Virus record (IMG/VR): IMGVR_UViG_3300008952_000048
Location: 1 to 61,196 of that record
Strand: one strand, 5' to 3'
DNA length: 61,196 nucleotides
Origin: a virus
Lineage: Duplodnaviria; Caudoviricetes
The stretch's first letter is position 1; every line of letters begins with the position of its first letter. Positions 15,863 to 55,470 of the stretch are shown here, in pieces. The notes below the pieces were generated by a model. It searched no databases and was not told where the DNA came from. It saw only the letters and a program-made list of their open reading frames with translations. Position numbers and translations under genes: made by a program.

Positions 15863-16288
15863 ATGGCGACCAAACAAAGAAAAATCTTAACTCCATTTCT
15901 TCCTCTCGTTGAAAGTGGGGAACTAGAGTATAAACATATAGATAATAATGGCGACCTCATAAGGCAGAACTTCAAGAACCTGATTTTAACAATCCCAGGG
16001 GAGAGAATGATGGATCCAGATTTCGGTGTCGGAATCCAAAGGTTCTTATTTGAAAATGCCATTGCCGCATCTTCTGGAATCCAAACAGAAGTAGCTAGAC
16101 AAGTTAGTAAATATATGCCATTTATTAGTATTAGAAACGTTCTCGTCGAGCCGTCTGCAGAGGAAGCCACTCTTATTGTGAGGATCTTTTATTCTGTTCC
16201 GACTTTGGCTATTGAAGAATATATTAATTTATCTTTTGATGCCAATGGTCGCTGGTTATACGATAGTTGGGAAACATCGATAAGTTAA
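15863..16288 (+). CDS. baseplate wedge / sheath-initiator protein (gp25/GPW family)
   Basis: IRQNFKNLILTIPGERMMDPDFGVGIQRFLFE hallmark; AAGGAGGT SD at 15848-15855. Confidence 0.92.
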   Translation: MATKQRKILTPFLPLVESGELEYKHIDNNGDLIRQNFKNLILTIPGERMMDPDFGVGIQRFLFENAIAASSGIQTEVARQVSKYMPFISIRNVLVEPSAEEATLIVRIFYSVPTLAIEEYINLSFDANGRWLYDSWETSIS

Positions 16289-16341: not shown

Positions 16342-18135
16342 ATGACAAAACTCAAAAATGTCCCCATAAATTATACCAGTCGAGATTTCGAAACAATCAA
16401 ACAAGACTTGGTAGATCATGCAAAAAGATATTACCCGGATACCTTCCAAGATTTCAATGAAGCCGGCTTTGGTTCTCTAATGCTTGATACAGTTGCATAC
16501 GTTGGCGACATTCTTTCTTTTTATGCAGACTACCAAGCAAGCGAGAGTTTTATCGACACGGCCTCTGAGTTTAATAACCTCATTAGTCTTGGAAAACAAA
16601 CGGGATTTAAGTTAAAGAGGAATACAGCATCGCAAGGGATTGCAACGTTTTTTATTATGGTTCCCGCTAACTCTTCTGGCACCGCGCCAGACACCAGATA
16701 TATACCAATTTTGAAGAAGGAAACTTCGATGACCTCGACCTCAAACGCAAGATTTGTCCTAAACGAAGATGTTAATTTTTTGTCTGGCGACACCGTTGTT
16801 GCAAGAACCGACCCCGACACCGGCGCCCCAACCTATTTTGCTGTGAAGAATTATGGCGCCATTTCTTCAGGAGAGCTCGTCTCGGCCGCTATTACGGTCG
16901 GAACTTTTAAGAAGTACAGAGAAATTTCTGTTGAGGATCCATTTATTACAAATATCGTATCTATTGTCGATTCAGATGGTCACGACTATTATGAGGTTGA
17001 CTACCTAACTCAGAATGTTATTTTTCGGTCTATAGCAAATCGAGATGCAACAACGAGAGAACTGGCCCCAGAGATTCTTAAACCATTGGTAGTTCCGCGC
17101 CGATTTGTAACTGAACACAATGCCGGAGGAATAAAAATACAATTTGGATCAGGACTTGAAGAGACGAATGCCAATGATAGAGTTCTAGACCCATCCTCAG
17201 TATCCATGAAAATGTATGCGAAACCATATATATCAGATGTCGAAATGGATCCAAGCAAACTCCTCTCATCCGACACCCTTGGGGTCTCCCCAGCAAACAC
17301 TCAACTAACAATAACTTACCTCAGAAACACCAGAAGTGATGTGAATATAAGTGCAAATTCCCTGACAAAAGTAGACAGGAATATAATGGAATTTCAGGAT
17401 GTAAACTCTTTAGACCCCTCCCAAGTTGGCATCGTTCGAGCTTCTGTTGAGGTTACGAACGGGAGCCCCATTGTTGGTTCGATTTCTGACACGGACGTAG
17501 ATGAGTTGAGAAGGAGAATTTCTAATTCCTTTTCCAACCAGCGCCGCGCTGTGACACTCAAGGACTATGAAACTATGGCCTACGCTATGCCCTCTAAATT
17601 CGGAGCCCTCAAAAGAATCAGGGCGATAAAAAACCCAAACCCACGACGTGGGAATCTCAACATCGCCGTAATCGCGGAAGATGCCTCTGGTTATCTTACA
17701 GAATCAAATTTAGTTTTGAAAGACAACCTTCGAACGTGGCTCGACAAGGGCCGAATGGTGAGCGATGTTGTTGAAATAACGGATGCAAAGATTATTAATT
17801 TGGGCATAAACTTTACAGCCATCGGCGACTTAGATAAAAACCGAAGCGCCATATTGCAAGATTGCATAGAGGCGATTGCAATCCTGTATAGCAACAAAGC
17901 TGAAATCGGGGAAGCCTTTTATATAACTGATGTGTATAAGACACTTAAAGATGTCGATGGCGTCATTGACGTGGTTGATGTAGGTGTCGTTACTAAGAAT
18001 GGCTCCAATTATAGTAGCATCTCATTTGACATAAATGATAATCTGTCCGAAGATGGAAGGTCTATTGTGATGCCCCGAAACGTAATTTATGAAATCAAAT
18101 ATCCCACCTTGGATATCAAGGGGGCAATTAAATAA
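16342..18135 (+). CDS. baseplate wedge protein (T4 gp6 / baseplate J-like)
   Basis: INYTSRDFETIKQDL, DFNEAGFGSLMLD..AYVGDILSFY, IQFGSG, QRRAVTLKDYE. Confidence 0.9.
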   Translation: MTKLKNVPINYTSRDFETIKQDLVDHAKRYYPDTFQDFNEAGFGSLMLDTVAYVGDILSFYADYQASESFIDTASEFNNLISLGKQTGFKLKRNTASQGIATFFIMVPANSSGTAPDTRYIPILKKETSMTSTSNARFVLNEDVNFLSGDTVVARTDPDTGAPTYFAVKNYGAISSGELVSAAITVGTFKKYREISVEDPFITNIVSIVDSDGHDYYEVDYLTQNVIFRSIANRDATTRELAPEILKPLVVPRRFVTEHNAGGIKIQFGSGLEETNANDRVLDPSSVSMKMYAKPYISDVEMDPSKLLSSDTLGVSPANTQLTITYLRNTRSDVNISANSLTKVDRNIMEFQDVNSLDPSQVGIVRASVEVTNGSPIVGSISDTDVDELRRRISNSFSNQRRAVTLKDYETMAYAMPSKFGALKRIRAIKNPNPRRGNLNIAVIAEDASGYLTESNLVLKDNLRTWLDKGRMVSDVVEITDAKIINLGINFTAIGDLDKNRSAILQDCIEAIAILYSNKAEIGEAFYITDVYKTLKDVDGVIDVVDVGVVTKNGSNYSSISFDINDNLSEDGRSIVMPRNVIYEIKYPTLDIKGAIK

Positions 18136-19973
18136 TGGCAATTAAAAGATACACAGCAGACGCAGACAACACTATTACAAACGCCTTCGAGTCTAACTTA
18201 GAGACTCGCGGAACAGACGCCAACATGGGACTCTCAGATATTATCGAGACATTTGTTATTTATGGTCAAGCATCAAGCTCTTCGCTAGAAGAGTCTAGAA
18301 TTTTAGTTAAATTTCCAGTTGACGAAATACAGGAAGATAGAGATGCCTTAAATGTTCCAGCGTCTGGAAACGTAGACTTCTACCTCCGTGTGCACAATGC
18401 ACCGCATGGCCAGACATTGCCAAAAGATTATAGCTTAAAAATCTTACCAGTCTCCGGAGCTTGGGAAGAGGGTTACGGACTTGATATGGAATCCTACTCT
18501 GACAAGGGTGAGTCCAATTGGGAACAAGCCACAACCAGTCGAGATTGGGTTTGGGATGGTGGAGATTTTCATACCACCCCAGAATTTACTCAAGCTATGC
18601 CACTTGGCACAGAAGATATAGAAATTAATATAACTGACTTGGTGGAGGATTGGCTCTCTGATGACGGAATCGCCAATGACGGATTGGGGATAAACATCTC
18701 TTCCAGCGTTATCGATCCGTTTTCGGTTAATGCCAGCTTCAGTAACGTGAGTTTGGGCAACCAGGACGCGGTGTTGACTGTGCCAAAACAATGGACAGGC
18801 ATGACTGCCGCCGAAACAGCATCTTTTGATAATAGCACTTCAACATGTTATGACTTTGTTTCTGGCACCGGTGCGCCATCTCCAGCCCCAGATCCGTATG
18901 CTGCATGGCTAACTGTCGACATCGGTGCCCAAAACGCTTCCTATGTTGATACCGAGCGAACGAGCTCGATACTTCTTTTCCCTACCGACTCTGGAGAGTC
19001 TCTCTGGGGCGACGTTAATTCTGATTGCACTTATTTGACAGGGAGCACTGTTGTCTTTCTTTTTTCTAGTGGCTCGGTTTTCCCCCACCACAGAAACGTG
19101 ATGGACTTGACATTGCAGCTGCCCTCAAACATAGCTCGCTTCGATCGCTCTTATTATATTAAGAAATTCTTTGCACGAGGTTCAGAGCATTTTTATTTGC
19201 GCCCCAAAATCGAAGCAAGATGGGACTCTTCAAAGAAGGATAGGAGAAATTCTTTTTATGCTTCTAGTTCTCTGGTCCCGGCTGCAGACAATCTAAACAC
19301 ACTATACATTTATAATAGGGTTCGAGGACAACTCCAAAACATTCCAGCCATCGGCACCGGCAGTATTCTTGTTAGCCTATATTCCGGCACAACAGAGCCA
19401 TCGGGTTCCAAAGTATCTTTGTGCGGAGGCGCCACCAACGCGACAGGATCGTGGGTAACTACTGGCATATACTCTGCACAGTTGTGCACAACCTCCAGCG
19501 GCCCCTACCTGTATGATGTCTGGCATTCAGCATCGGTTGAGTATGTTACGGGAAGCAGAATATCTGTTAGAAGTTTTGCTACCGACACCTCTGTTGATAC
19601 GGGCGAATACGTTTCAAATATAACTAATTTAAAAGAGAGTTATGCTCAAACTGAAAGCCCAAGATTGAGAATGTTTGTGAGGGATAAAGATTGGAGCCCA
19701 ACAATTTACACAGTTGCAACAACCAACATTGAGACGAAAGTAATTGAAGATGCTTATTTCAAAGTTTATAGGGTTGCAGATGGCTTTGACGTAATATCCT
19801 ACGGAACGGGCAGTTCAAATTGTACGAGGATGTCTTATGATAAAGATGGAAACTATTTTGATATTGACATGTCCATGTTTGAGTCAGACTATTCATATGG
19901 AATTAAGGTTGCCTATAAAGTAAATGATAGATATGAGGAACAGCCAGAACTTTTTAAATTTAGGGTTGAATAA
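18135..19973 (+). CDS. virion structural protein with DNRLRE/CBM96-like domain
   Basis: ADADNTI, SRILVKF, PVSGAWEEG, W..DGGDF, INITDLVEDWL..NDG, RPKIEARW; coupled (TAATG) to gp6. Confidence 0.7.
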   Translation: MAIKRYTADADNTITNAFESNLETRGTDANMGLSDIIETFVIYGQASSSSLEESRILVKFPVDEIQEDRDALNVPASGNVDFYLRVHNAPHGQTLPKDYSLKILPVSGAWEEGYGLDMESYSDKGESNWEQATTSRDWVWDGGDFHTTPEFTQAMPLGTEDIEINITDLVEDWLSDDGIANDGLGINISSSVIDPFSVNASFSNVSLGNQDAVLTVPKQWTGMTAAETASFDNSTSTCYDFVSGTGAPSPAPDPYAAWLTVDIGAQNASYVDTERTSSILLFPTDSGESLWGDVNSDCTYLTGSTVVFLFSSGSVFPHHRNVMDLTLQLPSNIARFDRSYYIKKFFARGSEHFYLRPKIEARWDSSKKDRRNSFYASSSLVPAADNLNTLYIYNRVRGQLQNIPAIGTGSILVSLYSGTTEPSGSKVSLCGGATNATGSWVTTGIYSAQLCTTSSGPYLYDVWHSASVEYVTGSRISVRSFATDTSVDTGEYVSNITNLKESYAQTESPRLRMFVRDKDWSPTIYTVATTNIETKVIEDAYFKVYRVADGFDVISYGTGSSNCTRMSYDKDGNYFDIDMSMFESDYSYGIKVAYKVNDRYEEQPELFKFRVE

Positions 19974-22900
19974 TGAGTGACGCCAACAGGAGAGCAACGG
20001 CCGCAAAGACCGAAGCGGATTTGCAAGAAGATAACTTGGAGTCCTCCAAGTTAATAACCTCCGAGACAAAACTAGAAAACATAATCGACCCAAGGCTCGA
20101 CTACTCAGATCCATCAACATTTGTAACTTATGGCCTTGCAGAAAAATACTATGTAGCTGCAGTTGAGAATATAACCAACATTTATCCTTACGATGGATCA
20201 AAGCTCGAGAAGACTGAGTGGCACATTTCTGGCTCTGGTCTTGATAATTATGTTTTTGATAACACATACCCTCGAACAAACGGAAGTATTACTTTATCTT
20301 ATGGCGGCTGGGGAGATACAGCCGCATCGTTGGACGAATATGAACTTCCTGTCGATAAAGAATATATCACCGTTTACGGTGGCCCAAATGCCGACAGCAT
20401 GGCAACCAACCTATCTTCACTCTTTCCGTCTGCTGGCGGCAAAGCAAATGTTATCAACGCCCTCGAAAACCAAGAGGCAAACCTTACAATTGGTGGTGGC
20501 AATACTGTTGAATTTTGGATGAAGAAACCTACTTTTGAAAAAGCTCATGAAGTGGTTCTCGATGTTATGCCAAATCAGCTTGTATCCGATGATAGGTTTT
20601 GTATATACTTATCGTCATCTGGCCACATCGGCCTGAAATACAAAGCATCATCTTCCGAAGTGTCTGGCGAATTTCCGGTCACTGGCTTGGACGATGACAA
20701 TTGGCACCATTATGCGATCTCTATTACGCCCTCTGGTGCAGCCACTCTTTATATCGACGGCGCAGCCTCGGATGATGAAGTCACCGGCGACGCCACCACG
20801 AAAGTTGAAACACCACTTGTTGCGACACTAGGATCTTACGCTGGCCCCAAGGCCGCCGATGGCACCACATTACCAACTGATACTCCAGGTTGGTGTAAGC
20901 TGGACGCCTCCCTTGATGAATTTCGATTTTGGAAAACAGATCGTTCCGGGATTGAAATAGGAATTAACTGGAATACGCAGGTTTATGGTGGCACAAATAC
21001 AGACACAGCAAATACTGACTTGGGCGTTTACTTTAAATTTAATGAAGGCATCCTTGGAACATCTCAAGATGCCACGGTCTTAGATTTCTCAGGCAGGATT
21101 TCGAATGGAGCCTGGACTGGATATTCTCCAGGCGCAAGAAGCTTGACTTCTGCAATGGTAGAGTCTGGCGCTTCTGTTTCGGAGTTTAAAGATCCCATCA
21201 TTTACTCTACTCATCCCGATGTGAAAGCCCTCAAAGAACGCCTCCGCGTCGATGGTCTCTTATATGATCAGCAAAACAACGCATCATTATATAATTCTGT
21301 ACCATCTTGGATTAGAGAGGAAGACACCGGCACCCAGAATACTATGAAGTTAATGCAGATTATGTCATCCTATCTCGACACGCTTCAAAATCAACTCACA
21401 GAAATTAACCAGATTAAAAATATATCTTATCCTAGCGGCTCCCAAAAGCCGTATAACATTATAAACAGGAATCTTAGAAACCTTGGGTTTGAAACAGAAG
21501 ATTTCTTTATTGATGCTACTTTGCTAGAGAGGTTCATGGATCGAAACAATCAAGGAGATCTCGAACTTAAAATTACAGATACGAAGAATTTAATCTATCA
21601 GAACATTTACAATAACTTAACTTACATTATGTCTTCCAAGGGAACTGAAAAGTCTTTTAGGAACTTGGTTAGATGCTTCGGGGTCGATGAGAGACTTGTG
21701 AAGCTAAATGTCTATAGTAACGGAGAAATATACACACTCGAAGACAGGTATGCAACTTCGGTATTTAAAAAGAGGATGATCTCTTTCGATGATACTACGA
21801 GGTTTGAGGCAACCATTTTTCAAACTTCAAGTGCCACAACTCCAAGCTTAGGGTACATATCTTCATCTGGTGATTTTGCAAATCTCAATGGAGTAACCTT
21901 GGAAGCAGACATCCTATTTCCAAGTCAGGCCCCGATATCCTCTCCGGATTATTATAACATTCCCTTTAAGAAAGCTTCGCTGTTCGGCATGAAAGAAACA
22001 GACGGCACCACTTATGATTGGCTCCCGACAGACAATGCAGACCTGCAGGTTTATGCTGTGCGGGAACAAAAGAATGGTGAAAGCGCGTATTTTCAACTGA
22101 CCTCCTCACAGCTCGGCATCGATCTTAAAACAGATGTATATGGAGGCGTTTATGATAACGAACGGTGGATCTTCGCTGCAAAGGTTAAAAACCCCGCCAT
22201 CGACACCGACGAAGATTATGTAATAGAATTTCAGGGCTCAAACGCCAACAATGGAATCATTCAAAATTCTTTTACTCTTACTGCCAGCCTTGACAACACA
22301 GAGGCTCTGGCCCTTCTTGGTGCAGACAAGAGATTGTTTGCTGGAGCGTATAAGACAAACTTCTCAGGATCAACTGTCGAGAAGACAAATGTTTTATTTT
22401 CAGCCTTAAGATACTGGGGAAAATACCTCAATGAAGATGAAATCACAAGCCACGCAAAGGATGCCAGAAACTTTGGCCTAAAAGACCCGAATAGACCTGT
22501 ATTTAACGCAGAAAATGATATGCCCGCCATTGACACGCTAAAATTGCATTGGGATTTTGAGCTGGTTAACTCGTCTTCTACGGGGGGAGAATTTGATGTT
22601 TTAGATTTCTCTGGTGGCAACGGCTTATATGGAGATTTTGGAAATATTCACAACGGCAAAGGGTATGGCTTTCCGGCTAGTTCTACTGAGGTTGTGGATG
22701 TTGAATATGTCAATACTTTGACGAGAGTGAACCCCGACGTGGCCAACGGATCAGACATGGTTGATGTCTTAACTCCAGCAGAGCAAATAAAAGAAGAGTT
22801 TTCCCAACCAACAAATCTTGTGTTCGCCATCGAAAAAAGCTTATACCAGACACTATCAGATGAAATGATTAGGTCTTTTTCCACTATAAAGGACTTTGCC

Positions 22901-23545
22901 TCTCTCTACAATAGTGCTGCAGACAAATATAGAAACAAACACGCAGAGATGGAAATAATGAGAAGAAATTTCTTTTCTAAGATGGAAAACTCTCCCGATG
23001 TTAACAAATTTTATGAATATTTTAAATGGATTGATGACGCTGTGGTCCGCATGCTCCGGCAAGTCTTGCCAGCTGGTGCTGAAGTTACGGAGGGATCAAT
23101 CAATATAATTGAAGGCCATATTTTAGAAAGAAACAAGTTTGTTCATAAGACACCGACATATGCGGTGGATAAAGAAATAAACACGATTGCCGTTGTTGTT
23201 AACGTTGCAACAAATGGCGGCGGGAGTGGTATCGGCGCAGCTGCGGACTATAGCGACCCCTTTTGGGATGGAAGACCTTTTTATGAATTGCCGTACTCTA
23301 TGGAATCTGGAGATGTGCACGTTGATGCTGACAGATTGAGAATATTAAATAACCTACACAGCGGCCGCCGTAAGATTTCTCAGGTAGAGTCAACAATACC
23401 AGATGGTGTGTGGCTGGAAGAAAAATCTACAGCCTCTCATATCCCCGCAAACGAAGAATCCGAGATGTCCTCAACCGGCCTTGTTGAGCAGGTTATACGG
23501 AATGGGAAAACTAAAATCTTTGGTAAGATTGTCAAACTTGGATAA
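19973..23545 (+). CDS. baseplate/tail protein with LamG (concanavalin-like) domains and tail-protein-I/gp7-like segment
   Basis: TVEFWMK, DDNWHHYAI, LYIDG, LDEFRFW (LamG); SKGTEKSFRNLVRCFG resembles the KGT motif of baseplate wedge proteins. Confidence 0.75.
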   Translation: MSDANRRATAAKTEADLQEDNLESSKLITSETKLENIIDPRLDYSDPSTFVTYGLAEKYYVAAVENITNIYPYDGSKLEKTEWHISGSGLDNYVFDNTYPRTNGSITLSYGGWGDTAASLDEYELPVDKEYITVYGGPNADSMATNLSSLFPSAGGKANVINALENQEANLTIGGGNTVEFWMKKPTFEKAHEVVLDVMPNQLVSDDRFCIYLSSSGHIGLKYKASSSEVSGEFPVTGLDDDNWHHYAISITPSGAATLYIDGAASDDEVTGDATTKVETPLVATLGSYAGPKAADGTTLPTDTPGWCKLDASLDEFRFWKTDRSGIEIGINWNTQVYGGTNTDTANTDLGVYFKFNEGILGTSQDATVLDFSGRISNGAWTGYSPGARSLTSAMVESGASVSEFKDPIIYSTHPDVKALKERLRVDGLLYDQQNNASLYNSVPSWIREEDTGTQNTMKLMQIMSSYLDTLQNQLTEINQIKNISYPSGSQKPYNIINRNLRNLGFETEDFFIDATLLERFMDRNNQGDLELKITDTKNLIYQNIYNNLTYIMSSKGTEKSFRNLVRCFGVDERLVKLNVYSNGEIYTLEDRYATSVFKKRMISFDDTTRFEATIFQTSSATTPSLGYISSSGDFANLNGVTLEADILFPSQAPISSPDYYNIPFKKASLFGMKETDGTTYDWLPTDNADLQVYAVREQKNGESAYFQLTSSQLGIDLKTDVYGGVYDNERWIFAAKVKNPAIDTDEDYVIEFQGSNANNGIIQNSFTLTASLDNTEALALLGADKRLFAGAYKTNFSGSTVEKTNVLFSALRYWGKYLNEDEITSHAKDARNFGLKDPNRPVFNAENDMPAIDTLKLHWDFELVNSSSTGGEFDVLDFSGGNGLYGDFGNIHNGKGYGFPASSTEVVDVEYVNTLTRVNPDVANGSDMVDVLTPAEQIKEEFSQPTNLVFAIEKSLYQTLSDEMIRSFSTIKDFASLYNSAADKYRNKHAEMEIMRRNFFSKMENSPDVNKFYEYFKWIDDAVVRMLRQVLPAGAEVTEGSINIIEGHILERNKFVHKTPTYAVDKEINTIAVVVNVATNGGGSGIGAAADYSDPFWDGRPFYELPYSMESGDVHVDADRLRILNNLHSGRRKISQVESTIPDGVWLEEKSTASHIPANEESEMSSTGLVEQVIRNGKTKIFGKIVKLG

Positions 23546-23560
23546 AACGTTGAAAAGAAC

Positions 23561-23567
23561 CTATTTA
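23561..23567 (+). promoter_or_regulatory. putative late promoter CTATTTA
   Basis: Intergenic, upstream of the tail fibre gene. Confidence 0.55.
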
Positions 23568-23598
23568 GAATAGTAAAAAGGATTCCGGAGGAAATAAG

Positions 23599-26004: not shown

Positions 26005-26007
26005 ATA

Positions 26008-30726: not shown

Positions 30727-30794
30727 AACCACCATTTACGCAATAAACCACATATCAGCATATTTATTAATGTTAAGAAGAATATAAGGTATTT

Positions 30795-37310: not shown

Positions 37311-38395
37311 CATTTTTTGATAAGAAAGAAGAAGTTATTGAAATCAAATTGACATCCTTTGGAAAGTCTCTCTATTCTAGAGGAAAGCTTAAGCCATCCT
37401 ATTATGCCTTTTATGATGAGGATGTTATTTATGACAGCCTCTATGGGTGTTCATCCGGCAGTGCCGATCAGAGGATAGGCGAGACTCCACGATCTAGGGT
37501 GCAGACCAGCAGGACTGGAGTTGACAACAACCTAGAAAAGATAGATACTTTTTACGAAAACTTTATCGCTTCGGGGATCGCCCCTAGTGATGCTAAGGAA
37601 ATAAATTTAGTCGAGGAAGCAAGAAGAAGAGATATATTTCTTCCAATTGGTAGCTCCGCAAATAGCACTCCTTACTATCCGGCTTGGAGATCATACCTCC
37701 TGTTGGGAAACTCAGACTCAACAAAGCCGTATTTTTATTTTGGAAATGAGACAGGATCTGTCGTTAACATCCCTCAAATAGATATTAAGAAGAGGGTGTT
37801 TACCTCAAAAGCAATTCGAGGCTCTGATGATAATACTGCACTCTATGGTTATGTATTCCCAGATGGAAGTAGCCTCACTCTTAAGGAAAATGAAAATGCT
37901 GAGTTTTTGCTTTACCTGGAAGAAAAGAATGCTTCATCGGACAATAAGAACTTTAGTGTTGAAGTATATGAAATGACAGAAGAGAATGGCAAAGAGATGT
38001 TATACCCTCTTAAATTTAAAAAGGGGGCCCAAACTAACAGGATTGTGGATGGGATTATGCTTGACAGTGATCCAGAGATTGGTACGCCTCCCCCTCCCGC
38101 CGATCCTACTGAGATGGTGGATTATTATTTTGATGTGGAGCTTGACGAGGAAATCTCGGTGGACATTCTACGAAGAGCGTTCCAAAGCGGAAGGTTCGCG
38201 GGCATCGAGGATTTAGAATCTCTTGTAAGCACATTTAGATTTCCCCCTGGCACCGACGCCACTTCTGGCGGCCCGTCTAGTGAGATATACGGATTGAGCT
38301 TGGATGACATTGCTCAAATGGATAGTGAAATTATAGAAGGCATGGAAACTGGCCTATACGATGAGGACGATAATAGCGATGACGACCCCTGTTAA
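37307..38395 (+). CDS. virion structural protein
   Basis: N-terminus (FFD..EVIEIKLTSFGK..L.PSYYAFYDEDVIYD) is paralogous to 43940..44836; acidic C-terminus; ATGA coupling. Confidence 0.7.
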   Translation: MTFFDKKEEVIEIKLTSFGKSLYSRGKLKPSYYAFYDEDVIYDSLYGCSSGSADQRIGETPRSRVQTSRTGVDNNLEKIDTFYENFIASGIAPSDAKEINLVEEARRRDIFLPIGSSANSTPYYPAWRSYLLLGNSDSTKPYFYFGNETGSVVNIPQIDIKKRVFTSKAIRGSDDNTALYGYVFPDGSSLTLKENENAEFLLYLEEKNASSDNKNFSVEVYEMTEENGKEMLYPLKFKKGAQTNRIVDGIMLDSDPEIGTPPPPADPTEMVDYYFDVELDEEISVDILRRAFQSGRFAGIEDLESLVSTFRFPPGTDATSGGPSSEIYGLSLDDIAQMDSEIIEGMETGLYDEDDNSDDDPC

Positions 38396-41300
38396 TTATA
38401 TTGGCGATGAAGTACCAAACGTTGAGATAGACGGAGTTTTTCTAGAACCCACTAGAGTTGTTATTCATTTACACATTAATGAATATATTTACCCTCTTGG
38501 TGTCGGAACGTGGGTAACAAATCAAAGCTACAAGAATTTATTGAGAATTGATCTTGTCCAGACATCTATCAAAGACGGATTGTTAAGCTCATCTCTTGTT
38601 AAGAAAATTTATGCTTCTGATCACTATCCCCGTGATTTAAGTAAAATAACGGCGAAAAGAAAAAGACAAAAATTACAACAGATAGGTTTTAAAATAGTCT
38701 TGGAAGATTTTGACTACAAAGGATTGACAAGTTTATCTTTCACTGCAAATACCACAATTACGGAACGGGAACTGATAACCAAGAGGGGCTTTTCTTTTGC
38801 TGCTGTTAATATGGAACCACTTTCTGGGAAGCCTTCAACAGTCGAGGTTATGAAAAATAGAAACGTTCTCTCGAAAGGTGTTGGTTATTTTCTAGGTGAA
38901 TCTTTTTATAATGGGCCCAAAACTCAACTTCCCAATGGCCGCTGGGTCACAGGAACCACTCAGACCGAAGAGTCAAGATTTCTAACAGTCAGGAGTGTTC
39001 CGAACATCAAGGTTGCAGACTATAGAGATCTATATGAAGTACTTCCAAAGATTGGCACACCCATCACTTCTGCGAAGAATAATTTGCCGTATGGCACCAA
39101 ATTGGGATATTTCTCAGAACTAAGTTCCTGCCGAGATAAAGAAGGAAACCTAAGATTTTTCTTTACACTAGATTACGAATCGGCCTACAAGAACAAATCT
39201 CAGTATGGTGATTTGTTTGCGAAAATGAGCCAGAGATTGAAAGACCGAGTTCTTTTGAATTCGGCGATAAGAAGTTTACAACTCAGCCGCAAGCGCGTCG
39301 ATCTCAAAACTACCGCAACGAATGAGCCCAGTGAAATGTTTGTAATTGCAGGCGAGCAGAGAGGCGACGCGTTTAGGAAATCAAATGCTAAATATGGCGC
39401 CATTCGCGAAGAAGAATTTAGTTTTCAATATGGAGACCTTCTTCTTCGAAGCTTCTCCGGCGCCGACCGATCCTTGAAAGATATAACGGTAGGAAAGTAT
39501 CAATACAGTGTCTCAGCAAACATAGAGGACGGCATGTACAACTTTATGGATTTTCAGAGCAGGGAGCTCGTGCAATCTCAAGCGTTACTTCAAACTTATA
39601 GAAACCTTCTTAACAGCGCCAAGAATTATGATAATGATTCACAAACATATGATCGAGACTTTATTAATGATTTGCGAGCGCAAACATCATTTGAAAATCT
39701 TCCATACATTAGAGCCCTCATTACAATTTCGGAGAATATTACTTTTCTTGCCGATAACTTGAGCAACAGTGAAATAAAAAGATTCCTCAGCACCCTTAGA
39801 TATAAACTTAGTCCACGGACTGGAACAAAAGAGGGCGTTGATCAGGCAATAAATATTATGGGTATCATGCAAAGAAACATGGCCACCGTCATGGAAATTG
39901 TCTCAAAGGGAGCCGCAGCCATACTTCACGGTAGAGATCAAACAATAAAGACCGGAGCATCACGAGGGAACCTCCAGTTCTCGCTCAGTAGCACATTTTC
40001 AGAAGTATTTGATGCGACTGAGAGTTACGATAAGGGGATTGCCTACCTATCTACCACGGAGATTTTAGATTTAGACGGCGCAACTGGCTTAAAGACCATC
40101 TCTGGCACTACTCTGGAAAATAGGATGGATGATGAAAATTTGAAGTTCTTTAACGCTAAAAGTGTCATGTTCACTATCTCGTCCGGTGATCAGTCTTTCA
40201 CCGCAGATGGAACCGGAACTTCCTTTTCTTATCTTACTCCGACATCTTTGCGCCTGGGAAAACGAGCCTACATGATCAACACAGATAAAAATGTATCTTA
40301 CTCAGGAGATCTTTCTGTCGAAACAATGTCGTCTGGGGATGCAGAAAACAAATATAAAATGGCTTTAGGGGAATTATCAAAGTCAAGGTTTAAATCTGAG
40401 ACGCTTGAATTTATAGACATAAGACCAACCTCAGACGAAACTTTTTCCATGGAAAGCAACCTAGACGAACCAAATGAGACTAACCCTGCGAAGGAGTCTA
40501 TAAATCAATTTAACCTTTCTTTCAATACAAGAGAGCAAGGCTTTACAAATCCTTTCACAGCTGCCAACATTTCGGCGGTATATTTATCTTCACAAATAGA
40601 TCAAACTCCCGTTGAGAATTTAGCGACACAGGCAAAGATTAATAATTTGAGTCCTATGAGCAGGTTTACAAATATAGATTCTGAACATATAGCGGGCACA
40701 AAGGTAGAACCTAAAGTCATAGATCAGCAGTATGAGGCCCCCTCATCGGTAGTGATAACTACGTCGCCAGACTTCGAACTCAACGGATTAGATGGCACGA
40801 AACACACTATATCCAGAGAAAAGTTTGACAAACTCCCAAACCACTTCAAAGCAATTTTTGCCAGTGGCGCCACTTTCGGCTCTGCCTTTAGCAAGATTTT
40901 TGATGCAGCCAATCTTGGCGACAACAATAGATATAACTTAATTTTAGGATCAATTGTGAAGGTTGAGGTTTTAGCCGGGTATCACAAGGACAGGGAGGGA
41001 GACACTCTCATTAAGGCTCCCAAGTTTATTCCCTTGACATACGATTATTATAAAACCAGCGCCGGAAAGAATCTCTTGTGTCGACTTAAACCATATGAGA
41101 ATGACAGTATCGGATTTAAGAGAAGCAATATGGCATCGATTTATAATAAGTTTTTTGTTGTTGCAGTCCCGGAATCCGTCGCCGGCCCAGAGAACCTACT
41201 ACAAATCAGGATTAACAGTGCCGAAACAATTCAGGAAATAGTTGATATTTATGATGCATTTGGTGTTGACTTTGATCGCGGAAGAGGCGCAGTAATTGAC

Positions 41301-41426
41301 GTAGATCCTAACACCTGCGGAGTCCTTTCGGAAGAGAGGGCGACAGAAAACATATACGGATCAACAACCCCAACATCCGGAGAAATAGCTCTGGCCCTTG
41401 AGGGGGGAACACCTACAGACTATTAG
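38379..41426 (+). CDS. large hypothetical protein, probably virion structural
   Basis: ~1015-aa ORF in the tail module. Start is ATG 38379 or 38361. Confidence 0.65.
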   Translation: MTTPVNYIGDEVPNVEIDGVFLEPTRVVIHLHINEYIYPLGVGTWVTNQSYKNLLRIDLVQTSIKDGLLSSSLVKKIYASDHYPRDLSKITAKRKRQKLQQIGFKIVLEDFDYKGLTSLSFTANTTITERELITKRGFSFAAVNMEPLSGKPSTVEVMKNRNVLSKGVGYFLGESFYNGPKTQLPNGRWVTGTTQTEESRFLTVRSVPNIKVADYRDLYEVLPKIGTPITSAKNNLPYGTKLGYFSELSSCRDKEGNLRFFFTLDYESAYKNKSQYGDLFAKMSQRLKDRVLLNSAIRSLQLSRKRVDLKTTATNEPSEMFVIAGEQRGDAFRKSNAKYGAIREEEFSFQYGDLLLRSFSGADRSLKDITVGKYQYSVSANIEDGMYNFMDFQSRELVQSQALLQTYRNLLNSAKNYDNDSQTYDRDFINDLRAQTSFENLPYIRALITISENITFLADNLSNSEIKRFLSTLRYKLSPRTGTKEGVDQAINIMGIMQRNMATVMEIVSKGAAAILHGRDQTIKTGASRGNLQFSLSSTFSEVFDATESYDKGIAYLSTTEILDLDGATGLKTISGTTLENRMDDENLKFFNAKSVMFTISSGDQSFTADGTGTSFSYLTPTSLRLGKRAYMINTDKNVSYSGDLSVETMSSGDAENKYKMALGELSKSRFKSETLEFIDIRPTSDETFSMESNLDEPNETNPAKESINQFNLSFNTREQGFTNPFTAANISAVYLSSQIDQTPVENLATQAKINNLSPMSRFTNIDSEHIAGTKVEPKVIDQQYEAPSSVVITTSPDFELNGLDGTKHTISREKFDKLPNHFKAIFASGATFGSAFSKIFDAANLGDNNRYNLILGSIVKVEVLAGYHKDREGDTLIKAPKFIPLTYDYYKTSAGKNLLCRLKPYENDSIGFKRSNMASIYNKFFVVAVPESVAGPENLLQIRINSAETIQEIVDIYDAFGVDFDRGRGAVIDVDPNTCGVLSEERATENIYGSTTPTSGEIALALEGGTPTDY

Positions 41427-41443
41427 ATTAGGTATATAAAATT

Positions 41444-43870
41444 ATGAAATTTTCTAAGTTAAACAATTCACTAATTAAAAAGAATACACCTTTTGCCGAG
41501 AGGAAATCACTAAAGGATTTTGTTGGACTCTACCAGTCCGGCGGCTATTTCGAACAAAAGAAACCGCAGCTACAAAGCAATTCTGCAAAAGGCCCTTCTT
41601 CTGAGAAGTGGGTAAATCAAACTTCTGTTGAAAATGATGTTTTCCGTGAGAAGATTGGTGCATCTTGGAAGGTGAGCCGAACGTCACTTAATATGCTTAA
41701 AGATCAGATTGGAAATTTGAACTTTCCAATTACCTTTGCAGCCTCCTCAATAGCGTTTGACAACAGCGGCGGCCCATGGGGAGGCACTTCGGAAGATTTG
41801 GTATTTACCGGTAACGACGTTATCATTACGGACATCGCTGGCTCGCTTCCGGGAGTTCCTATTTTGGACTTGTGTTTTGTCCTCTCGGATATAGAGGTGA
41901 ATAACATCGGAGCTTCTTATAATTTTTATATTAAAGAATACGAAGAGGCAACATCAGACGCTGCCGTCGATGAATATGATTTATTGGATTCATATGGAAC
42001 ATATTTATCGCTACTTCCCTTGACGTACTTTGCAGATGTTGGTAATGGTCTTGATGATTTCACGAATGAAAATATCTTGAAACTAATAAACCCGGATGTT
42101 TATAGGCATGACTCTCGCGGGAACCTAATCTCGGAAAGATTTCAAACAACACAGAGGCACGACGAGAACAGCTCCCCAGCATTTCCTAACAATAATATAA
42201 AGAATTTTTATAGAAATTTTTCTGTGAACATTGGAAACCAACTTTCTTCGGAAAAGTATAAGAATATAATCTACCCAGAGGGCAGTGAGAAGAAAGTCAA
42301 CGAGTCAGTCAGTTCTTTAAAAGATTCTTTCCCATATTATATAGGATTTGATATTCATATTCCCGACTTTGCAAATGACGGCCAAGAATCTGGCAACCCC
42401 ATGATTAGCCGCGCCCCTCGCCTGTCCGAAGCTTTCACGTCTGGTGAGGTGAAAATGGCAAATTATCTTATGAAAAATGTTGCCGCAAGTTTATACACTT
42501 CAGCAGTCTACAGAGAAGAGGAATATATAAGGAACGCTAATGGACAGAATTTTTCGGCAACCCCAAAAGTTTGGGATCTTTTGACGCTTCTTGATTATGG
42601 ATATAGTGAGTTTAAAGATAAGTCAATTGTTCTCGGAACCGTTGGGGACAAATTGGATACGTTCCCTGAGTTGGCACCGGGCTTTTCTAATACCATAGAT
42701 AATGTTGAATTTTTAATTAATTTATATAATATGGTGGCCCCCTTCTGGCGCCGAACAGAGGACATTTTTTCTGGTGTGTTCGCGTCATCTGAAGTAGTGA
42801 TGTATAGAGTTGCAAAATATAAGAAAAACTCTTTTCAAGATCCAATACAGAATTTCTTTTTCTTTAACTCCGGCAATGTGGATGTGTTTAAATTCATGGA
42901 CACTCAGGTGAAAGTGGGCGAAGATTATTTTTATAGAATTTACTCATATTCTATTGTTTTGGGATCGGAGTACACCTATATTAGCTCATACGCAGGATCA
43001 TTCACGGAAGAGACAGACTCAGCTTCGGCCAACTATGACCCACAATATCAACAGCCACCACCCCCGGCCCTGGGGATCAGCCTTCTAAATGCAAATGCTC
43101 TCAAACTTGTGGAGAATCTCGTATTTTCAACGCAATCTTTTGTAACGAGTTGTCCCCCTCTTGCTCCCGAAATTAAGTTTAGAAGTTTCATAGGAAACGA
43201 AAAGAGGATCCAAATATCATTTGGAAACCAAGAGACCCCGATTAAAGCTGTTCCATTTATGATGACACAAGAAGAAGAGCTCAGAATGAGAAGAATAAAA
43301 TCCTCTCAAGGCGATATCAATGCTGCCGAGGTGACATTTAAAAACGATGATGAGGTAAAGGTTTATGAGATATATAGGACAAAAACACCCCCGACAACCC
43401 TGAATGATTTCAAGGGAAAACTCCACCGCCGAGTTACAGACTCTTCAGTTTTGGAGAATGTCTCTGTAGATACTACATATTATTATATGTTTAGAACAAT
43501 CGACGCGCATGGAAATGTTTCCAACCCATCTAAGACATTTGAGTTGACTTTGATGGGCGGTTTTTCGCCGTATCTTGTTTACGAGGAATACAATTATCAA
43601 ACCGCCTACCCATCCAACAAAATGAAAGATCGTAAGATGAGGCGTTTTCTAAGGTTAAGGCCAGCGATGCAACAGCTTTTTATTGATGACCACAATTTAG
43701 CTGGTGTTGAATCATCGAGAGATGTGTCTTCGAGGCCCACGCTTGGAGTGGCCAACGATGGCACTGTGTGGGGAAAGAAATTTAAGATAAGATTAACATC
43801 TATTGAAACAGGAAAGAAAATAGACTATAATGTAGAATATGATTACGATTTTGAGCGTAGAGAAGAATAA
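41444..43870 (+). CDS. virion structural protein with fibronectin-III/Ig-like motifs
   Basis: FMDTQVKVGEDYFYRIYS and VYEIYR...TTYYYMFRTIDAHGNVSNPS are FN3-like C-terminal strands. Confidence 0.6.
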   Translation: MKFSKLNNSLIKKNTPFAERKSLKDFVGLYQSGGYFEQKKPQLQSNSAKGPSSEKWVNQTSVENDVFREKIGASWKVSRTSLNMLKDQIGNLNFPITFAASSIAFDNSGGPWGGTSEDLVFTGNDVIITDIAGSLPGVPILDLCFVLSDIEVNNIGASYNFYIKEYEEATSDAAVDEYDLLDSYGTYLSLLPLTYFADVGNGLDDFTNENILKLINPDVYRHDSRGNLISERFQTTQRHDENSSPAFPNNNIKNFYRNFSVNIGNQLSSEKYKNIIYPEGSEKKVNESVSSLKDSFPYYIGFDIHIPDFANDGQESGNPMISRAPRLSEAFTSGEVKMANYLMKNVAASLYTSAVYREEEYIRNANGQNFSATPKVWDLLTLLDYGYSEFKDKSIVLGTVGDKLDTFPELAPGFSNTIDNVEFLINLYNMVAPFWRRTEDIFSGVFASSEVVMYRVAKYKKNSFQDPIQNFFFFNSGNVDVFKFMDTQVKVGEDYFYRIYSYSIVLGSEYTYISSYAGSFTEETDSASANYDPQYQQPPPPALGISLLNANALKLVENLVFSTQSFVTSCPPLAPEIKFRSFIGNEKRIQISFGNQETPIKAVPFMMTQEEELRMRRIKSSQGDINAAEVTFKNDDEVKVYEIYRTKTPPTTLNDFKGKLHRRVTDSSVLENVSVDTTYYYMFRTIDAHGNVSNPSKTFELTLMGGFSPYLVYEEYNYQTAYPSNKMKDRKMRRFLRLRPAMQQLFIDDHNLAGVESSRDVSSRPTLGVANDGTVWGKKFKIRLTSIETGKKIDYNVEYDYDFERREE

Positions 43871-43873
43871 AGA

Positions 43874-43894
43874 GGGTTTTTATTTAAAAAACCC
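43874..43894. terminator. inverted repeat after gene 41444..43870
   Basis: GGGTTTTT-ATTTA-AAAAACCC 8-bp stem. Confidence 0.4.
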
Positions 43895-43896
43895 AC

Positions 43897-43920
43897 CTAT
43901 TTAGTGTATAATACTAATTA
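43897..43920 (+). promoter_or_regulatory. tandem putative late promoters CTATTTA and CTAATTA
   Basis: Intergenic, upstream of the GGAGG SD of 43940. Confidence 0.55.
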
Positions 43921-43939
43921 TGGTTTGGAGGAATAGCAA

Positions 43940-44836
43940 ATGGCATTTTTAGATAACAGTGGCGATATTATTATCGATGCAGTATTAACTGATCATGGAA
44001 GATACAGGTTAGCCAAAGGCGATGGCTCTTTTGCTATTGAGTACTTTGCTTTGGGCGACGATGAAATTGATTATGCTCTGTATGATGCTGACGCCCCCAC
44101 GGACCAAGGTAACTTGGAGATTATGCAAACTCCAATCTTGGAAGCATTTACAAATAATGCCTCCTCGCTAAAGAGTAAACTCATAACGATTAATCAAAAT
44201 AACTTGCTATACTTGCCGGTTTTGAGGGCAAACAACTTATTAAACTCAGCCGAAAACACTGACCTTGGCATGTATGTGGTTGCTTGCACCGAAACAACAG
44301 AAGTCAATGCCAGCGGCTCACAACCAAACCTCAATGGGGTGACTGTGGGAATGGGATCTGAAATAAGGATCGATCAAGGGGTAGACAATGACGCACAGTC
44401 ACCAAGTTATTTACTACCTCAGATTCTTGTAGAGACTCAATATAGTGTCCAGATTGATAATCGTCTGGGAATGATTGTTTCTAAAAATGGCACCAATGGC
44501 ACAATTGTAACCAATCAAGCATCTTACATTGATGACGACCAAATTGCAAGTTATATTTACACTTTAAACACTGACGATGCTTTTGTTTCGGAAAATACGG
44601 AGGTTGGTCAGACCAACGAAGTTATAGCTGGCCCAAGAGGTACAATTCTTACATTTGCGATTCAGGCATCTATTGAATTAAATACTAGCTCATACCTATT
44701 TTCTCAAATGGGGAGCACCGCTTACATAGCCGGAATAGGCGATGTTCAATATATTGATAGTACAGTCAGGATTGAGGGCATGACCACAGGCGCCTCGGTT
44801 GACTTGCCCATGAGATTTGTAAGATCAGTATCATAG
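43940..44836 (+). CDS. virion structural protein (fibre-attachment-like N-terminus)
   Basis: MAFLDNSGDIIIDAVLTDHGRYRLAKG..FAIEYFALGDDEIDY; GGAGG SD at 43927. Confidence 0.75.
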   Translation: MAFLDNSGDIIIDAVLTDHGRYRLAKGDGSFAIEYFALGDDEIDYALYDADAPTDQGNLEIMQTPILEAFTNNASSLKSKLITINQNNLLYLPVLRANNLLNSAENTDLGMYVVACTETTEVNASGSQPNLNGVTVGMGSEIRIDQGVDNDAQSPSYLLPQILVETQYSVQIDNRLGMIVSKNGTNGTIVTNQASYIDDDQIASYIYTLNTDDAFVSENTEVGQTNEVIAGPRGTILTFAIQASIELNTSSYLFSQMGSTAYIAGIGDVQYIDSTVRIEGMTTGASVDLPMRFVRSVS

Positions 44837-44852
44837 AACAGGGGAAATAATA

Positions 44853-45866
44853 ATGGCACAGACATTTAAAGAATTGGGAAGCGACAACATTGCATCAACA
44901 AGGACATTATTACATGAAAATGTCCCTGTGACTGGCACGATTGTTTCGGGAAGCACCTACAGCGGCGACAACATTAAAGATTATTCTCACGGTATGTTTC
45001 AGTCCGTGTATGATTATCCATATCTAAGTTCCTCAGCAAATCATCTATTCGATTTGACTTGCGGATATAAATCAGGTTCAGCTTCAAACACCCAAAATAG
45101 TAAGAAACAAAATATCTATGGCCAAATGGCACAAGTGTTGGTCGGCAACGATGCCCTCGGCAACATCAGAGAATTCGATAGAGACGGTGATCTATCTGAG
45201 GGCCCGTATATTAGCGAAGCATATTTTATAAACTTAGCGCGCCTGTTGACAAAAGATGAACTAAAAAAGGGAACGTTTACTCTTACGCTCGGCAACGGCG
45301 CAACCTACTCTGACCCCTTTTCCACCACAGATCTCGTAATCACCGACACCAATGCTGACACCAGTTACAAGACAAACTCGCCAGCCGGAGAGTATGGAAT
45401 CTTATACACTTCCTCTGTGGATATCGTAGAGGGTTCAGGTGTGGGTCTTTTATATTACCAAGCCGGCGTAGCGGTTTTATCCTCATCTGTCTTCGATGGC
45501 CTACAAATGAACGGCGCCGCCGAGACAGCAGAGCAGATGCTAGCTGGAAGCGAGATTTCTTCTAGTGCAGACGCAGTTCGCCACCGTTTCTATAATCTCT
45601 CATTCAACAACACAATCGAGTTAAATTCTACAATTTATTTCTGTAATGCAAATCACAATGAGTTTAATTATAGTGCGAATCCAACTTACCTCACCGCGAG
45701 TAAAATTAGAGTAAAAGAAAATGCTATTGACGCTCCATCTTCCTATATTACATCGGTGGGCCTTTATTCCGCCACTCATGAGTTGTTGGCAGTAGCAAAG
45801 CTGTCGGAGCCCTTAAAGAAGGATCCTGCCACCACCTTAACTCTCCGAGTGAGACTTGACTACTAG
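44853..45866 (+). CDS. virion structural protein
   Basis: C-terminal EFNYSANPT...YITSVGLY...ELLAVAKLSEPLKK...LRVRLDY; paralogue of the next gene. Confidence 0.75.
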   Translation: MAQTFKELGSDNIASTRTLLHENVPVTGTIVSGSTYSGDNIKDYSHGMFQSVYDYPYLSSSANHLFDLTCGYKSGSASNTQNSKKQNIYGQMAQVLVGNDALGNIREFDRDGDLSEGPYISEAYFINLARLLTKDELKKGTFTLTLGNGATYSDPFSTTDLVITDTNADTSYKTNSPAGEYGILYTSSVDIVEGSGVGLLYYQAGVAVLSSSVFDGLQMNGAAETAEQMLAGSEISSSADAVRHRFYNLSFNNTIELNSTIYFCNANHNEFNYSANPTYLTASKIRVKENAIDAPSSYITSVGLYSATHELLAVAKLSEPLKKDPATTLTLRVRLDY

Positions 45867-45892
45867 GCGTCTTTTCCGACAAGGAGGAACAG

Positions 45893-46993
45893 ATGTCCTT
45901 TTACAAGTTTGACAAGAATGACACGATTTTAAATAGTGCAAGGTCTTATCCTGAAGCCAGGGTTTATATCGATCAATCAGCTTCCTATTTTAATAATTCT
46001 GGACAATCTGGATATAAGCCCATCTCGCATGTATCGGGGAGTAAATTAATAGTTGGAAAATCCAGCTTCAGGGCCAGACCTGTCTTTGTGTCAATAGCGG
46101 AATATTCTGGCTCGAACGTCACTTCATCATTTGAATTAGATTACTATACAAACTCCAATGTTGTTGTATCTTCAGATTATCTAACTGGCACTGCAGTTTC
46201 GTATCCGACAGTGGTTCCAAATCCAAAACTATCAGCCTTAAAAAATACCCTTAATTATTATACGAAGAATAGTCAACACTATGCGTGGGTTGGCCCCTCG
46301 TCAAGCGCAACTGGTCCAGCGTGGTATAAGCCAGAACAAGATATTATGCTGGTAAGTATTCCATCTCTCCTGTATGGATCTTCAATCCAGGAGGGAAGTG
46401 TTGATCTAAAATTTTATGTTACCGGAACACTCGCTGGTCAACTAACGGACTCCACCGAGCGAGGCGAACTCGTCCAATCCGGCGGTGCAGAAGATGGAAT
46501 GGTTGCCGGCGTTGTCCTCTACAATGAGGGCTTCCTCCTCTTGACAGGATCTTGGGATCTAAACTCAACCCCAATACCATCCACCGGCGAGAACCCACGA
46601 TGGAATAATTTTGCAACCCAAAGCGTGGCAGAAACGGATGCATCTTTTGATATTAGTTTTAATGGCACCACCTACACACCAACTATGATGATGTTTGCCC
46701 ACGCAAATCGAGGAGAGGTGAACAACTCGAATAATCCAACCTTTGTTGAATACGACCAAACAAAAGTATCCGACAGCAGCCCCTTTCTATATCTTGAGAA
46801 CGACTCCCAGACAATAAAAAATATTGTATCTTCCTCCTTCCAAGAGTCGGGCTCCTTCGAGAAGACGACTTATATTTCATCGATTGGGATTTACGACGAC
46901 AATATGAATCTGGTCGGCACCGCAAAGCTGGCAAACCCCATTCGCAAGCGAGAAAAAGACAGTTATACATTTAAACTTAAGTTAGATCTGTGA
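45893..46993 (+). CDS. virion structural protein
   Basis: C-terminal NNSNNPTF...TYISSIGIYDDNMNLVGTAKLANPIRK...FKLKLDL; AAGGAGG SD at 45881. Confidence 0.75.
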   Translation: MSFYKFDKNDTILNSARSYPEARVYIDQSASYFNNSGQSGYKPISHVSGSKLIVGKSSFRARPVFVSIAEYSGSNVTSSFELDYYTNSNVVVSSDYLTGTAVSYPTVVPNPKLSALKNTLNYYTKNSQHYAWVGPSSSATGPAWYKPEQDIMLVSIPSLLYGSSIQEGSVDLKFYVTGTLAGQLTDSTERGELVQSGGAEDGMVAGVVLYNEGFLLLTGSWDLNSTPIPSTGENPRWNNFATQSVAETDASFDISFNGTTYTPTMMMFAHANRGEVNNSNNPTFVEYDQTKVSDSSPFLYLENDSQTIKNIVSSSFQESGSFEKTTYISSIGIYDDNMNLVGTAKLANPIRKREKDSYTFKLKLDL

Positions 46994-48465: not shown

Positions 48466-48481
48466 CAATAGAGGAAAATAT

Positions 48482-55467: not shown

Positions 55468-55470
55468 TAT

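Follow-up and report, generated by a model that had tools for sequence, protein, structure and literature searches.

What is the function, if any, of a short peptide pattern, [S/T]-[G/A/S]-S, that recurs in several large tail proteins of unrelated folds encoded by the IMG/VR virus record IMGVR_UViG_3300008952_000048? The DNA analysed here, called the window, is a single contig of 61,196 bases, a fragment of the genome of a T4-like myovirus, with all its genes on the + strand. A first-pass annotation had noticed the tripeptide by eye and proposed that it may be the sequon of a virion glycosylation system supplied by the sugar genes of the same genome. We find that the motif is a trait of one clade of phages and is confined to a subset of their tail-module proteins. 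Its leading reading, from the sequence evidence, is that of a candidate O-glycosylation sequon, which we hold tentatively.

The motif, written [ST][GAS]S, was counted in each of the 39 open reading frames (ORFs) of the window and compared with 2000 composition-preserving shuffles. Seven ORFs contain 3-4.5 times as many motifs as expected, while the remaining 32 stay at about onefold, none of them above z = 1.6. The first one, p612 (612 amino acids, 18135-19973, +), lies directly after the gene of the gp6-like wedge protein and holds 15 motifs for 3.7 expected. It is followed by p1190 (1190 amino acids, 19973-23545, +; 11 for 3.9), which carries a ConA-like (Laminin_G_3) domain (PF13385, E 2.7e-9), and by the tail-fibre-like p801 (801 amino acids, 23599-26004, +), where the enrichment is strongest (25 for 5.6). 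Next come a 1572-residue protein with YWTD beta-propeller blades and a MAM domain (26008-30726, +; PF00058, PF08450, PF00629; 29 for 9.0) and a 2171-residue protein of no known family, with no match in Pfam or PHROGs (30795-37310, +; 28 for 9.8). The last two are p337 (337 amino acids, 44853-45866, +; 8 for 2.1), a C-terminal paralogue of p366, and p366 itself (366 amino acids, 45893-46993, +; 8 for 3.0), which belongs to a very large family of aquatic phages. Four other tail-module proteins of 362, 1021, 808 and 298 amino acids (37307-44836, +) are not enriched (2/1.3, 1/3.6, 1/2.4 and 2/0.9, observed/expected), and searches of Pfam, PHROGs and ESM Atlas assigned them to no family. Flat counts were also obtained for the gp6-like wedge protein (16342-18135, +; 2/1.9), the terminase (53872-55467, +; 1/0.9), the T4-type portal (55471-57420, +; 1/1.0), a fused Mre11-Rad50 protein of 1059 amino acids (48455-51634, +; 1/1.6) and a 2580-residue protein with a LamG domain (4/4.6).

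These shuffles, a check that the first-pass annotation had itself proposed, bear out most of what it had counted by hand. Its figures were accurate for the 801-, 1572- and 366-residue proteins and slightly low for p612 (about 13 instead of 15), and it had rightly given about one motif each to the terminase, the portal and Mre11-Rad50, and few to the 2580-residue protein. The four proteins that it named are indeed enriched; it had missed the 1190-, 2171- and 337-residue proteins and the non-enriched block at 37307-44836. The strings that it quoted from the propeller, IFSSSLDG, VQSSSFDG, IYSASLHG and VFSASVDG, are all present, in four blades, at the I-x-x-x-x-L-D-G position.

The enriched proteins are rich in Ser (8.7-14.2%), and SS, GS and TG dipeptides are over-represented in them too. 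The enrichment persists when residues are shuffled inside 10- and 20-residue blocks, which hardly raises the expectation, and a conservative dipeptide-preserving expectation still leaves 124 motifs observed versus 67.9. Composition and low complexity were thus ruled out as the source of the signal by the global and block shuffles and by the dipeptide model. The forward residue order is the most enriched of the order permutations of the motif, and in an unbiased ranking of all tripeptides TGS (26/5.4), SSS (30/8.8), SGS (22/7.1) and TSS (20/6.6) lead the well-populated ones. The codons of the motif vary in the enriched window proteins; the signal therefore lies at the protein level, and a DNA-level motif is ruled out. 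The motifs are dispersed and not clustered, with short period-5/6 arrays in the fibres only, and their spacing peaks at 6-7 residues (11 observed vs 4.2 expected).

The class is sharply bounded at each of its three positions. In the seven enriched proteins, position 1 takes S or T and not A, G, N or D, position 2 takes G, A or S, other residues being depleted there, and position 3 takes S alone: [ST][GAS]T reaches 1.27-fold, and the variants ending in A, G or N 0.7- to 1.0-fold. A hydrophobic residue precedes the motif in 66 of 123 instances (38 expected) and a charged one in 9 (24 expected); V, A, L or F follows it. In this flanked form the motif is enriched between 8- and 20-fold, as in p801 (12/0.6) and the 2171-residue protein (12/1.1). 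When the set is enlarged to 32 tail proteins from five genomes of the clade (30,605 amino acids), the six tripeptides named by the pattern are the most over-represented of all (z up to 20), with SGS at 139/28.7, TGS at 113/23.2, TAS at 62/18.8, SAS at 58/23.4, TSS at 61/28.7 and SSS at 72/36.8; near-variants remain at ratios of 1.2 (TGT), 1.3 (SGT), 0.8 (AGS), 0.9 (GGS) and 0.7 (NGS). None of the known sequons N-x-[ST], [DE]-x-N-x-[ST] and D-[ST]-[AILVMT] shows consistent enrichment in the seven proteins (z from -1.0 to 1.4 for N-x-[ST] and from -2.0 to 0.5 for D-[ST]-[AILVMT]), and they were rejected. Separately, D-G-S and D-G-T are about twofold over-represented in the clade set, and D-G-T is at 1.6-fold in the outgroup set also, which looks like a more general turn preference.

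In order to determine how widely the motif is shared, we counted it in related and unrelated phages. The closest cultured phages, Flavobacterium phage immuto and Microcystis phage Mel-JY01, are distant (about 40% portal identity each); uncultured relatives are plentiful among viral metagenome contigs, some of them 185-204 kb long, and share 59-86% portal identity. Enrichment is seen in proteins encoded downstream of gp6 both in immuto (e.g. tail spike 169, 60/20.4, and ORF 159, 7/1.4) and in Mel-JY01 (e.g. 511, 18/5.5, and 516, 11/1.9); the gp6, primase and Rad50-like genes of the two phages are not. Two complete relatives, G001 and G002, were scanned genome-wide (121 and 131 ORFs). The only ORFs reaching p<1e-3 are the orthologues of p612, p1190 and p337 and one fibre-like protein, followed by the p366 orthologues and other p337 orthologues at p 2e-3 to 5e-3. 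Among them, the p1190 orthologues are fused giants of 3688 amino acids in G001 (46/14.1) and 5829 in G002 (65/24.9), and the p337 orthologues stand at 7/2.0, 9/2.1 and 7/2.0. In both genomes the orthologues of the non-enriched tail proteins (about onefold), the capsid module and the enzymes are flat, and so is a 1497-residue protein of G002 with 10.7% Ser (12/11.3). The enrichment also extends over whole protein families. All 68 homologues of the p801 fibre are enriched 2.1- to 4.9-fold, 56 aligned p612 homologues contain 649 motifs vs 165.3 expected, and 67 aligned p366 homologues contain 648 vs 155.9. For the p366 family, of which 4062 homologues were found, 149 of 150 diverse representatives have a ratio of at least 2 (median 4.1, minimum 1.97).

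Outside the clade the signal vanishes. The 23 baseplate and fibre proteins of T4 that were tested stay at about onefold and contain one flanked motif altogether, the giant structural proteins of cyanophage S-CAM1 are flat (10/9.1 and 11/9.4), as are that of a marine Vibrio jumbo phage (9/9.4) and a Rhizobium phage, and the p366-like protein of Rhodothermus phage RM378 has 1/1.2. In an uncultured phage of 484 kb, any enrichment is weak at most. None of 49 outgroup ORFs reaches p<1e-3, and the six tripeptides are at 0.7- to 1.3-fold in 18 outgroup tail proteins (19,900 amino acids). A generic property of phage tails is ruled out by the T4, S-CAM1, Vibrio, Rhizobium and RM378 controls.

Two further features of the enriched families were observed. 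Single giants lie at G002:133605-151094 and G001:134786-145852, where the window has separate genes for the 1190-, 801-, 1572- and 2171-residue proteins, which suggests gene fusion or fission in the tail module within the clade. In the p612 family, the first ~47% of the protein is 50-78% identical across thousands of homologues and the C-terminal half is variable or replaced, as expected for a host-range module.

The positions of the motifs change while their density is kept. Three p612 orthologues carry 15, 15 and 14 motifs, and 28 of their 35 motif columns are occupied in one sequence only. A few sites are nearly fixed, such as LTGSW in 59 of 67 p366 homologues, and YGTGS and ASSSL in 54 and 53 of 56 p612 homologues. 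At shared columns the six tripeptides interchange: one column holds TGS 38 times, SGS 7, TAS 7 and SAS 3, and others interchange SSS, SAS and TSS, so that the class acts as one unit. Where the motif is absent at shared columns, unrelated residues occupy its place. AGY and TCN, the two unconnected codon families of Ser, both occur at position 3 in 4 of the 14 shared sites. The turnover at constant density, the interchange and the codon switching thus indicate that the class is maintained by selection. As judged from the alignments, motif density is conserved beyond a simple inheritance of sites.

The proteins that carry the motif span several fold classes, namely a fibre repeat, a YWTD propeller with a MAM domain, a ConA-like domain, and sandwiches of the immunoglobulin (Ig), fibronectin type III (FN3) and macroglobulin (MG) types. 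A shared domain behind the enrichment was ruled out by all-versus-all BLAST, which links only p337 and p366 (25% identity over 114 amino acids). The AlphaFold2 (AF2) model of p612, with a predicted local distance difference test score (pLDDT) of 74.7, consists of tandem Ig/FN3/macroglobulin-like beta-sandwich domains, and Foldseek retrieves MG/Ig/FN3 arrays at E about 1e-5; the model of p366 (pLDDT 73.9) has no structural neighbour by Foldseek (best E 0.1). According to DSSP, the 23 motif sites of these two models fall in coil (12), at a strand edge (6), in a strand (3) or in a helix (2), for background shares of 39, 26, 22 and 14%. Several of them are two-residue hairpin turns, e.g. YL-TGS-TVVF and WH-SAS-VEYV. 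In p801 the motifs form period-5/6 arrays that end in F/Y-GDG elements, and its homologues contain dense period-4 to 6 arrays. All five p801 homologues that were re-scanned match PF06598, over [ST][GA]S arrays followed by F/Y-GDGS-LTG; p801 itself gives no PF06598 match at E<=0.01.

To explore which enzymes could read such a motif, we searched the related genomes for glycosyltransferases. The GT1/GT4-family domain PF00534 is present in all five related genomes examined and the GT2-family domain PF00535 in four of them. These genes are often in tandem and lie inside larger glycan-gene islands; G002, for instance, has two adjacent GT4-like ORFs of 427 and 419 amino acids. For one GT4-like gene, full-length orthologues at 31-48% identity exist in all 9 clade genomes examined, including those of the Flavobacterium and Microcystis phages, whose hosts belong to different phyla, and in 0 of 6 outside genomes (T4, S-CAM1, LR756508, a Vibrio phage, a Rhizobium phage and RM378). 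Enrichment of the motif was measured in five of these nine clade genomes, the window excluded, or in their tail families, and it is absent from the six outside genomes. The relatives of this GT4 in the PDB are generic GT4 enzymes, e.g. BshA (E 1e-9), with weak matches to a chlorovirus glycosyltransferase and to Gtf1 (E 1.8e-4 and 0.25). GT9 (PF01075) occurs in two of the five clade genomes and is not conserved, and a Maf-like domain (PF01973, MptE-like/Maf) occurs in one, which does not point to an enzyme of the Maf-type flagellin glycosyltransferases. In Mel-JY01 (PP395634.1, about 5.3-8.2 kb), a 1234-residue frame with GT1/GT4-type and GT9-type domains encodes a multidomain glycosyltransferase.

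The window itself carries, as the first-pass annotation had stated, sugar genes that Pfam recognizes at the contig's cut left end: a methyltransferase (219-758, +), a short DegT-like ORF of 198 amino acids (746-1342, +) and a GDP-mannose 4,6-dehydratase, gmd (1339-2310, +; E 3e-110). The top Pfam stretch of the DegT-like ORF covers profile positions 164-235 of 360, the methyltransferase match is restricted to the C-terminal half of the domain, and a 73-residue frame is open at the contig edge; the sugar genes in 1-1342 may have been cut short, have decayed, or represent an unusual short form.

We propose that the hydrophobic-flanked [S/T]-[G/A/S]-S would be a linear recognition motif under selection in the distal tail proteins of one aquatic T4-like clade, where it could serve as a sequon for cytoplasmic O-glycosylation, as the virion assembles, of its Ser or of the S/T at position 1. 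The phage-encoded GT-B/GT4 glycosyltransferase conserved throughout the clade would act as the enzyme, and the variable further glycosyltransferases and sugar-nucleotide genes, here gmd, the DegT-like gene and the methyltransferase, would set the glycan. A signal that is sequence-defined, fold-independent, clade- and protein-specific and maintained through turnover seems to fit a clade-specific reader better than a single structural element. We infer, as three separate steps, a modification of the motif of any kind, the glycan nature of that modification and the role of this GT4 as its enzyme. Confinement to exposed or distal proteins is likewise deduced from gene order: PHROGs, a PDB sequence search, Foldseek of the p366 model and ESM Atlas gave no usable assignment for the unannotated tail proteins, and placement in the inner or outer virion thus rests on gene order. 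The proposal in its full form, in which this abundant marine and freshwater clade would cover its distal tail, namely the wedge periphery, the fibres and the propeller and lectin-like proteins, with glycans by means of its own cytoplasmic GT4-type O-glycosyltransferase acting at a hydrophobic-[S/T]-[G/A/S]-S-hydrophobic sequon, is possible but somewhat doubtful.

Phage tails assemble in the cytoplasm, and a glycan on them would therefore need a soluble protein O-glycosyltransferase. The general O-glycosylation sequon of Bacteroidota, D-[ST]-[AILVMT], and the bacterial N-x-[ST] sequons are also short and mark many proteins, but these systems are periplasmic and their patterns, as said, are not enriched here. 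GtfA/GtfB, which are encoded by tandem genes of the GT-B/GT4 fold, glycosylate serine-rich repeat adhesins, fibre-like substrates with Ser-x-Ser patterns. They resemble the present case by the tandem GT4-like ORFs of G002 and by the fibre-like substrates. However, the Gtf1 matches of the clade enzyme are weak and rank below generic GT4 enzymes such as BshA, and the proteins studied here are folded and multi-domain, with dispersed motifs and no long dipeptide repeats. In mycobacteriophages, phage glycosyltransferases have been proposed to decorate the phages' own virion proteins in the host cytoplasm (Freeman et al. 2023, cited in PMC12619734), and the glycans, as cited in the same article, sit at the C-termini of capsid and tail-tube subunits. 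With respect to that account, our case differs in that the capsid-module proteins are not enriched and that the candidate sites are dispersed internal tripeptides, found on distal tail proteins of phages of Gram-negative bacteria and cyanobacteria and known from sequence alone. The O-heptosyltransferases Aah and TibC (substrates AIDA-I, TibA and Ag43) are described in PMC3835316 as glycosylating Ser/Thr where the loop begins in strand-loop-strand elements. Many motif sites here also lie at strand-loop junctions; residues 302, 312 and 465 of p612 and 218 of p366 fit the loop-start context and others do not. Aah/TibC act without a sequence consensus, whereas the motif class here is sharp, and their enzyme is a GT9 whereas the one conserved in the clade is GT4-like. 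Finally, chlorovirus Vp260 has a repeat, PF06598, that the p801 homologues match and p801 itself does not at the Pfam threshold. PMC5408694 presents Vp260 as a glycoprotein on the virion surface, the virus itself encoding the machinery for glycosylation; according to that source, the chlorovirus glycans characterised so far are N-linked and O-linked ones are not confirmed.

Several observations weigh against a glycosylation sequon. As the first-pass annotation had also reported, no glycosyltransferase is visible in the window, a contig fragment: Pfam detected no such family in its 39 ORFs and two extra frames. The annotation's link between the motif and the window's own sugar genes was not supported. 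The gmd and DegT-like genes, a possible sugar supply, are not conserved in relatives with equal enrichment, and gmd has no orthologue in G002 or Mel-JY01; for these particular genes, this is the outcome (equal enrichment in relatives lacking the sugar genes) that the annotation itself had said would refute its idea. The motif is therefore not tied to GDP-perosamine-type sugars, and the composition of any attached glycan probably varies between phages. The co-occurrence with glycosyltransferases, another check that it had suggested, agrees with the idea for the GT4 (9/9 vs 0/6) and not for gmd, which does not track the motif, and the GT4 pattern amounts to roughly one evolutionary event, confounded by kinship. 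The clade GT4 could equally act on DNA or on host glycans. The structural contexts given above come from AF2 models of moderate confidence only (pLDDT 74-75). In p366, T218 and G219 are invariant and S220 varies, TGA, TGT or TGG being found in 8 of 67 homologues, a pattern that suggests a constraint on structure, not on the acceptor, at this position. The hydrophobic flanks and several tight hairpin contexts fit a turn motif, and the period-5/6 arrays of the fibre family, within a PF06598-like repeat, could be purely structural. What stands of the modification-sequon idea is thus a real, protein-level motif, present on several folds in a subset of tail-module proteins, and the glycosyltransferases of the relatives; what is not supported is the part played by the window's sugar genes.

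These observations lead to the main rival, a clade-specific structural idiom in which the tripeptide ends or starts short beta-strands, as a tight turn or a strand cap, with no enzyme reading it. The small middle residue would pack inward and the hydroxyls would cap the backbone, and in the fibres the tripeptide would form the rung of a solenoid-like repeat. The idiom stays a strong rival because of the hydrophobic flanks, the two-residue hairpins, the arrays of the fibre homologues and the stronger conservation of T and G than of S; the enriched proteins are also all beta-rich, the spacing peak at 6-7 agrees with it, and near-invariant sites such as YGTGS and LTGSW are what it would produce. 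Against it, beta-rich tail proteins of T4, S-CAM1 and the Vibrio and Rhizobium phages lack the motif, as do beta-rich or Ser-rich neighbours within the genomes that carry it. The predicted contexts are mixed, with no single conformation, A and S in place of the middle G speak against a turn that needs glycine, position 3 excludes Thr, which suits strands better than Ser, and most sites turn over instead of holding fixed structural positions. We consider this explanation a serious possibility, although on the doubtful side.

It is unlikely, though conceivable, that the linear motif has a reader other than a glycosyltransferase, whether an enzyme that modifies Ser otherwise (by phosphorylation or acylation, for instance), an assembly chaperone specific to the clade, or host or environmental polysaccharide bound by the hydroxyl-rich patches themselves. 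The sequence-level evidence is the same as for a sequon, none of it specifies a glycan, and lectin-like and propeller domains, which are typical of adhesion, occur among the enriched proteins. However, no kinase, acyltransferase or chaperone candidate was identified, only glycosyltransferases having been searched for, and so strict a tripeptide would be unnecessary for a polysaccharide-binding patch. That the pattern is an artefact, whether of composition, of low-complexity stretches of Ser and Gly, of a motif chosen post hoc or of bias at the DNA level, is most improbable in spite of the Ser-rich proteins, the excess of SS, GS and TG dipeptides and a motif picked by eye, as the signal survives the global and local shuffles, the dipeptide model and the unbiased tripeptide ranking, consists of dispersed motifs with varied codons, and is replicated in independent genomes and in three large protein families, of whose thousands of homologues 68, 67, 56 and 150 sequences were sampled.

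To our knowledge, glycosylated virions are on record for mycobacteriophages and giant algal viruses but not for T4-like phages, the dominant ones in aquatic viromes, and we know of no sequon for any phage. A search of the open-access literature found no description of the motif or of tail glycosylation in T4-like aquatic phages. If the motif is indeed an O-glycosylation sequon, it would be the first one described for phage virion glycosylation, and tail glycosylation could be predicted from sequence alone for metagenomic tail proteins and uncultured phages by the thousand. The large glycan-gene islands of these phages would gain a function as well, the variable islands diversifying the coat between phages, and would bear on host recognition, protease resistance, particle stickiness and the engineering of phage receptors. 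If it is a structural idiom instead, it would still be an undescribed, lineage-specific signature of tail proteins, useful for annotating anonymous genes. Two cultured phages, immuto and Mel-JY01, make the question directly testable.

The remainder of the window is that of a T4-like phage. The gp25 wedge protein (15863-16288, +) lies just upstream of the gp6-like gene, a late sigma factor is encoded at 5016-5744 (+) and a prohead protease at 59105-59752 (+). Between the sugar genes and the late sigma factor, 2682-4292 encodes a glutamine-synthetase-like protein (333 amino acids) and an S-adenosylmethionine lyase. The T4-type late promoter TATAAATA was not found positioned upstream of genes in the window, G001 or G002. 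The portal gene directly follows that of the terminase large subunit (53872-57420), the intervening sheath and tube genes of T4 being absent there, and no sheath gene was identified elsewhere in the window. At 48455-51634, an Mre11-like phosphoesterase and Rad50-like SMC/AAA_23 domains are joined in a single protein, a fusion kept in G001 and G002 (1046 amino acids each, 47-49% identity). The portal homologues of relatives (loci L001-L080) contain 140 motifs vs 75.4 expected (1.9-fold), unlike the portal of the window, possibly owing to Ser-rich tails in some portals. In Mel-JY01, a protein annotated as chitinase-like and encoded upstream of the tail lysozyme (L084:2269-3300) holds 4 motifs vs 0.6 expected and is the sole enzyme-like protein that stands out.

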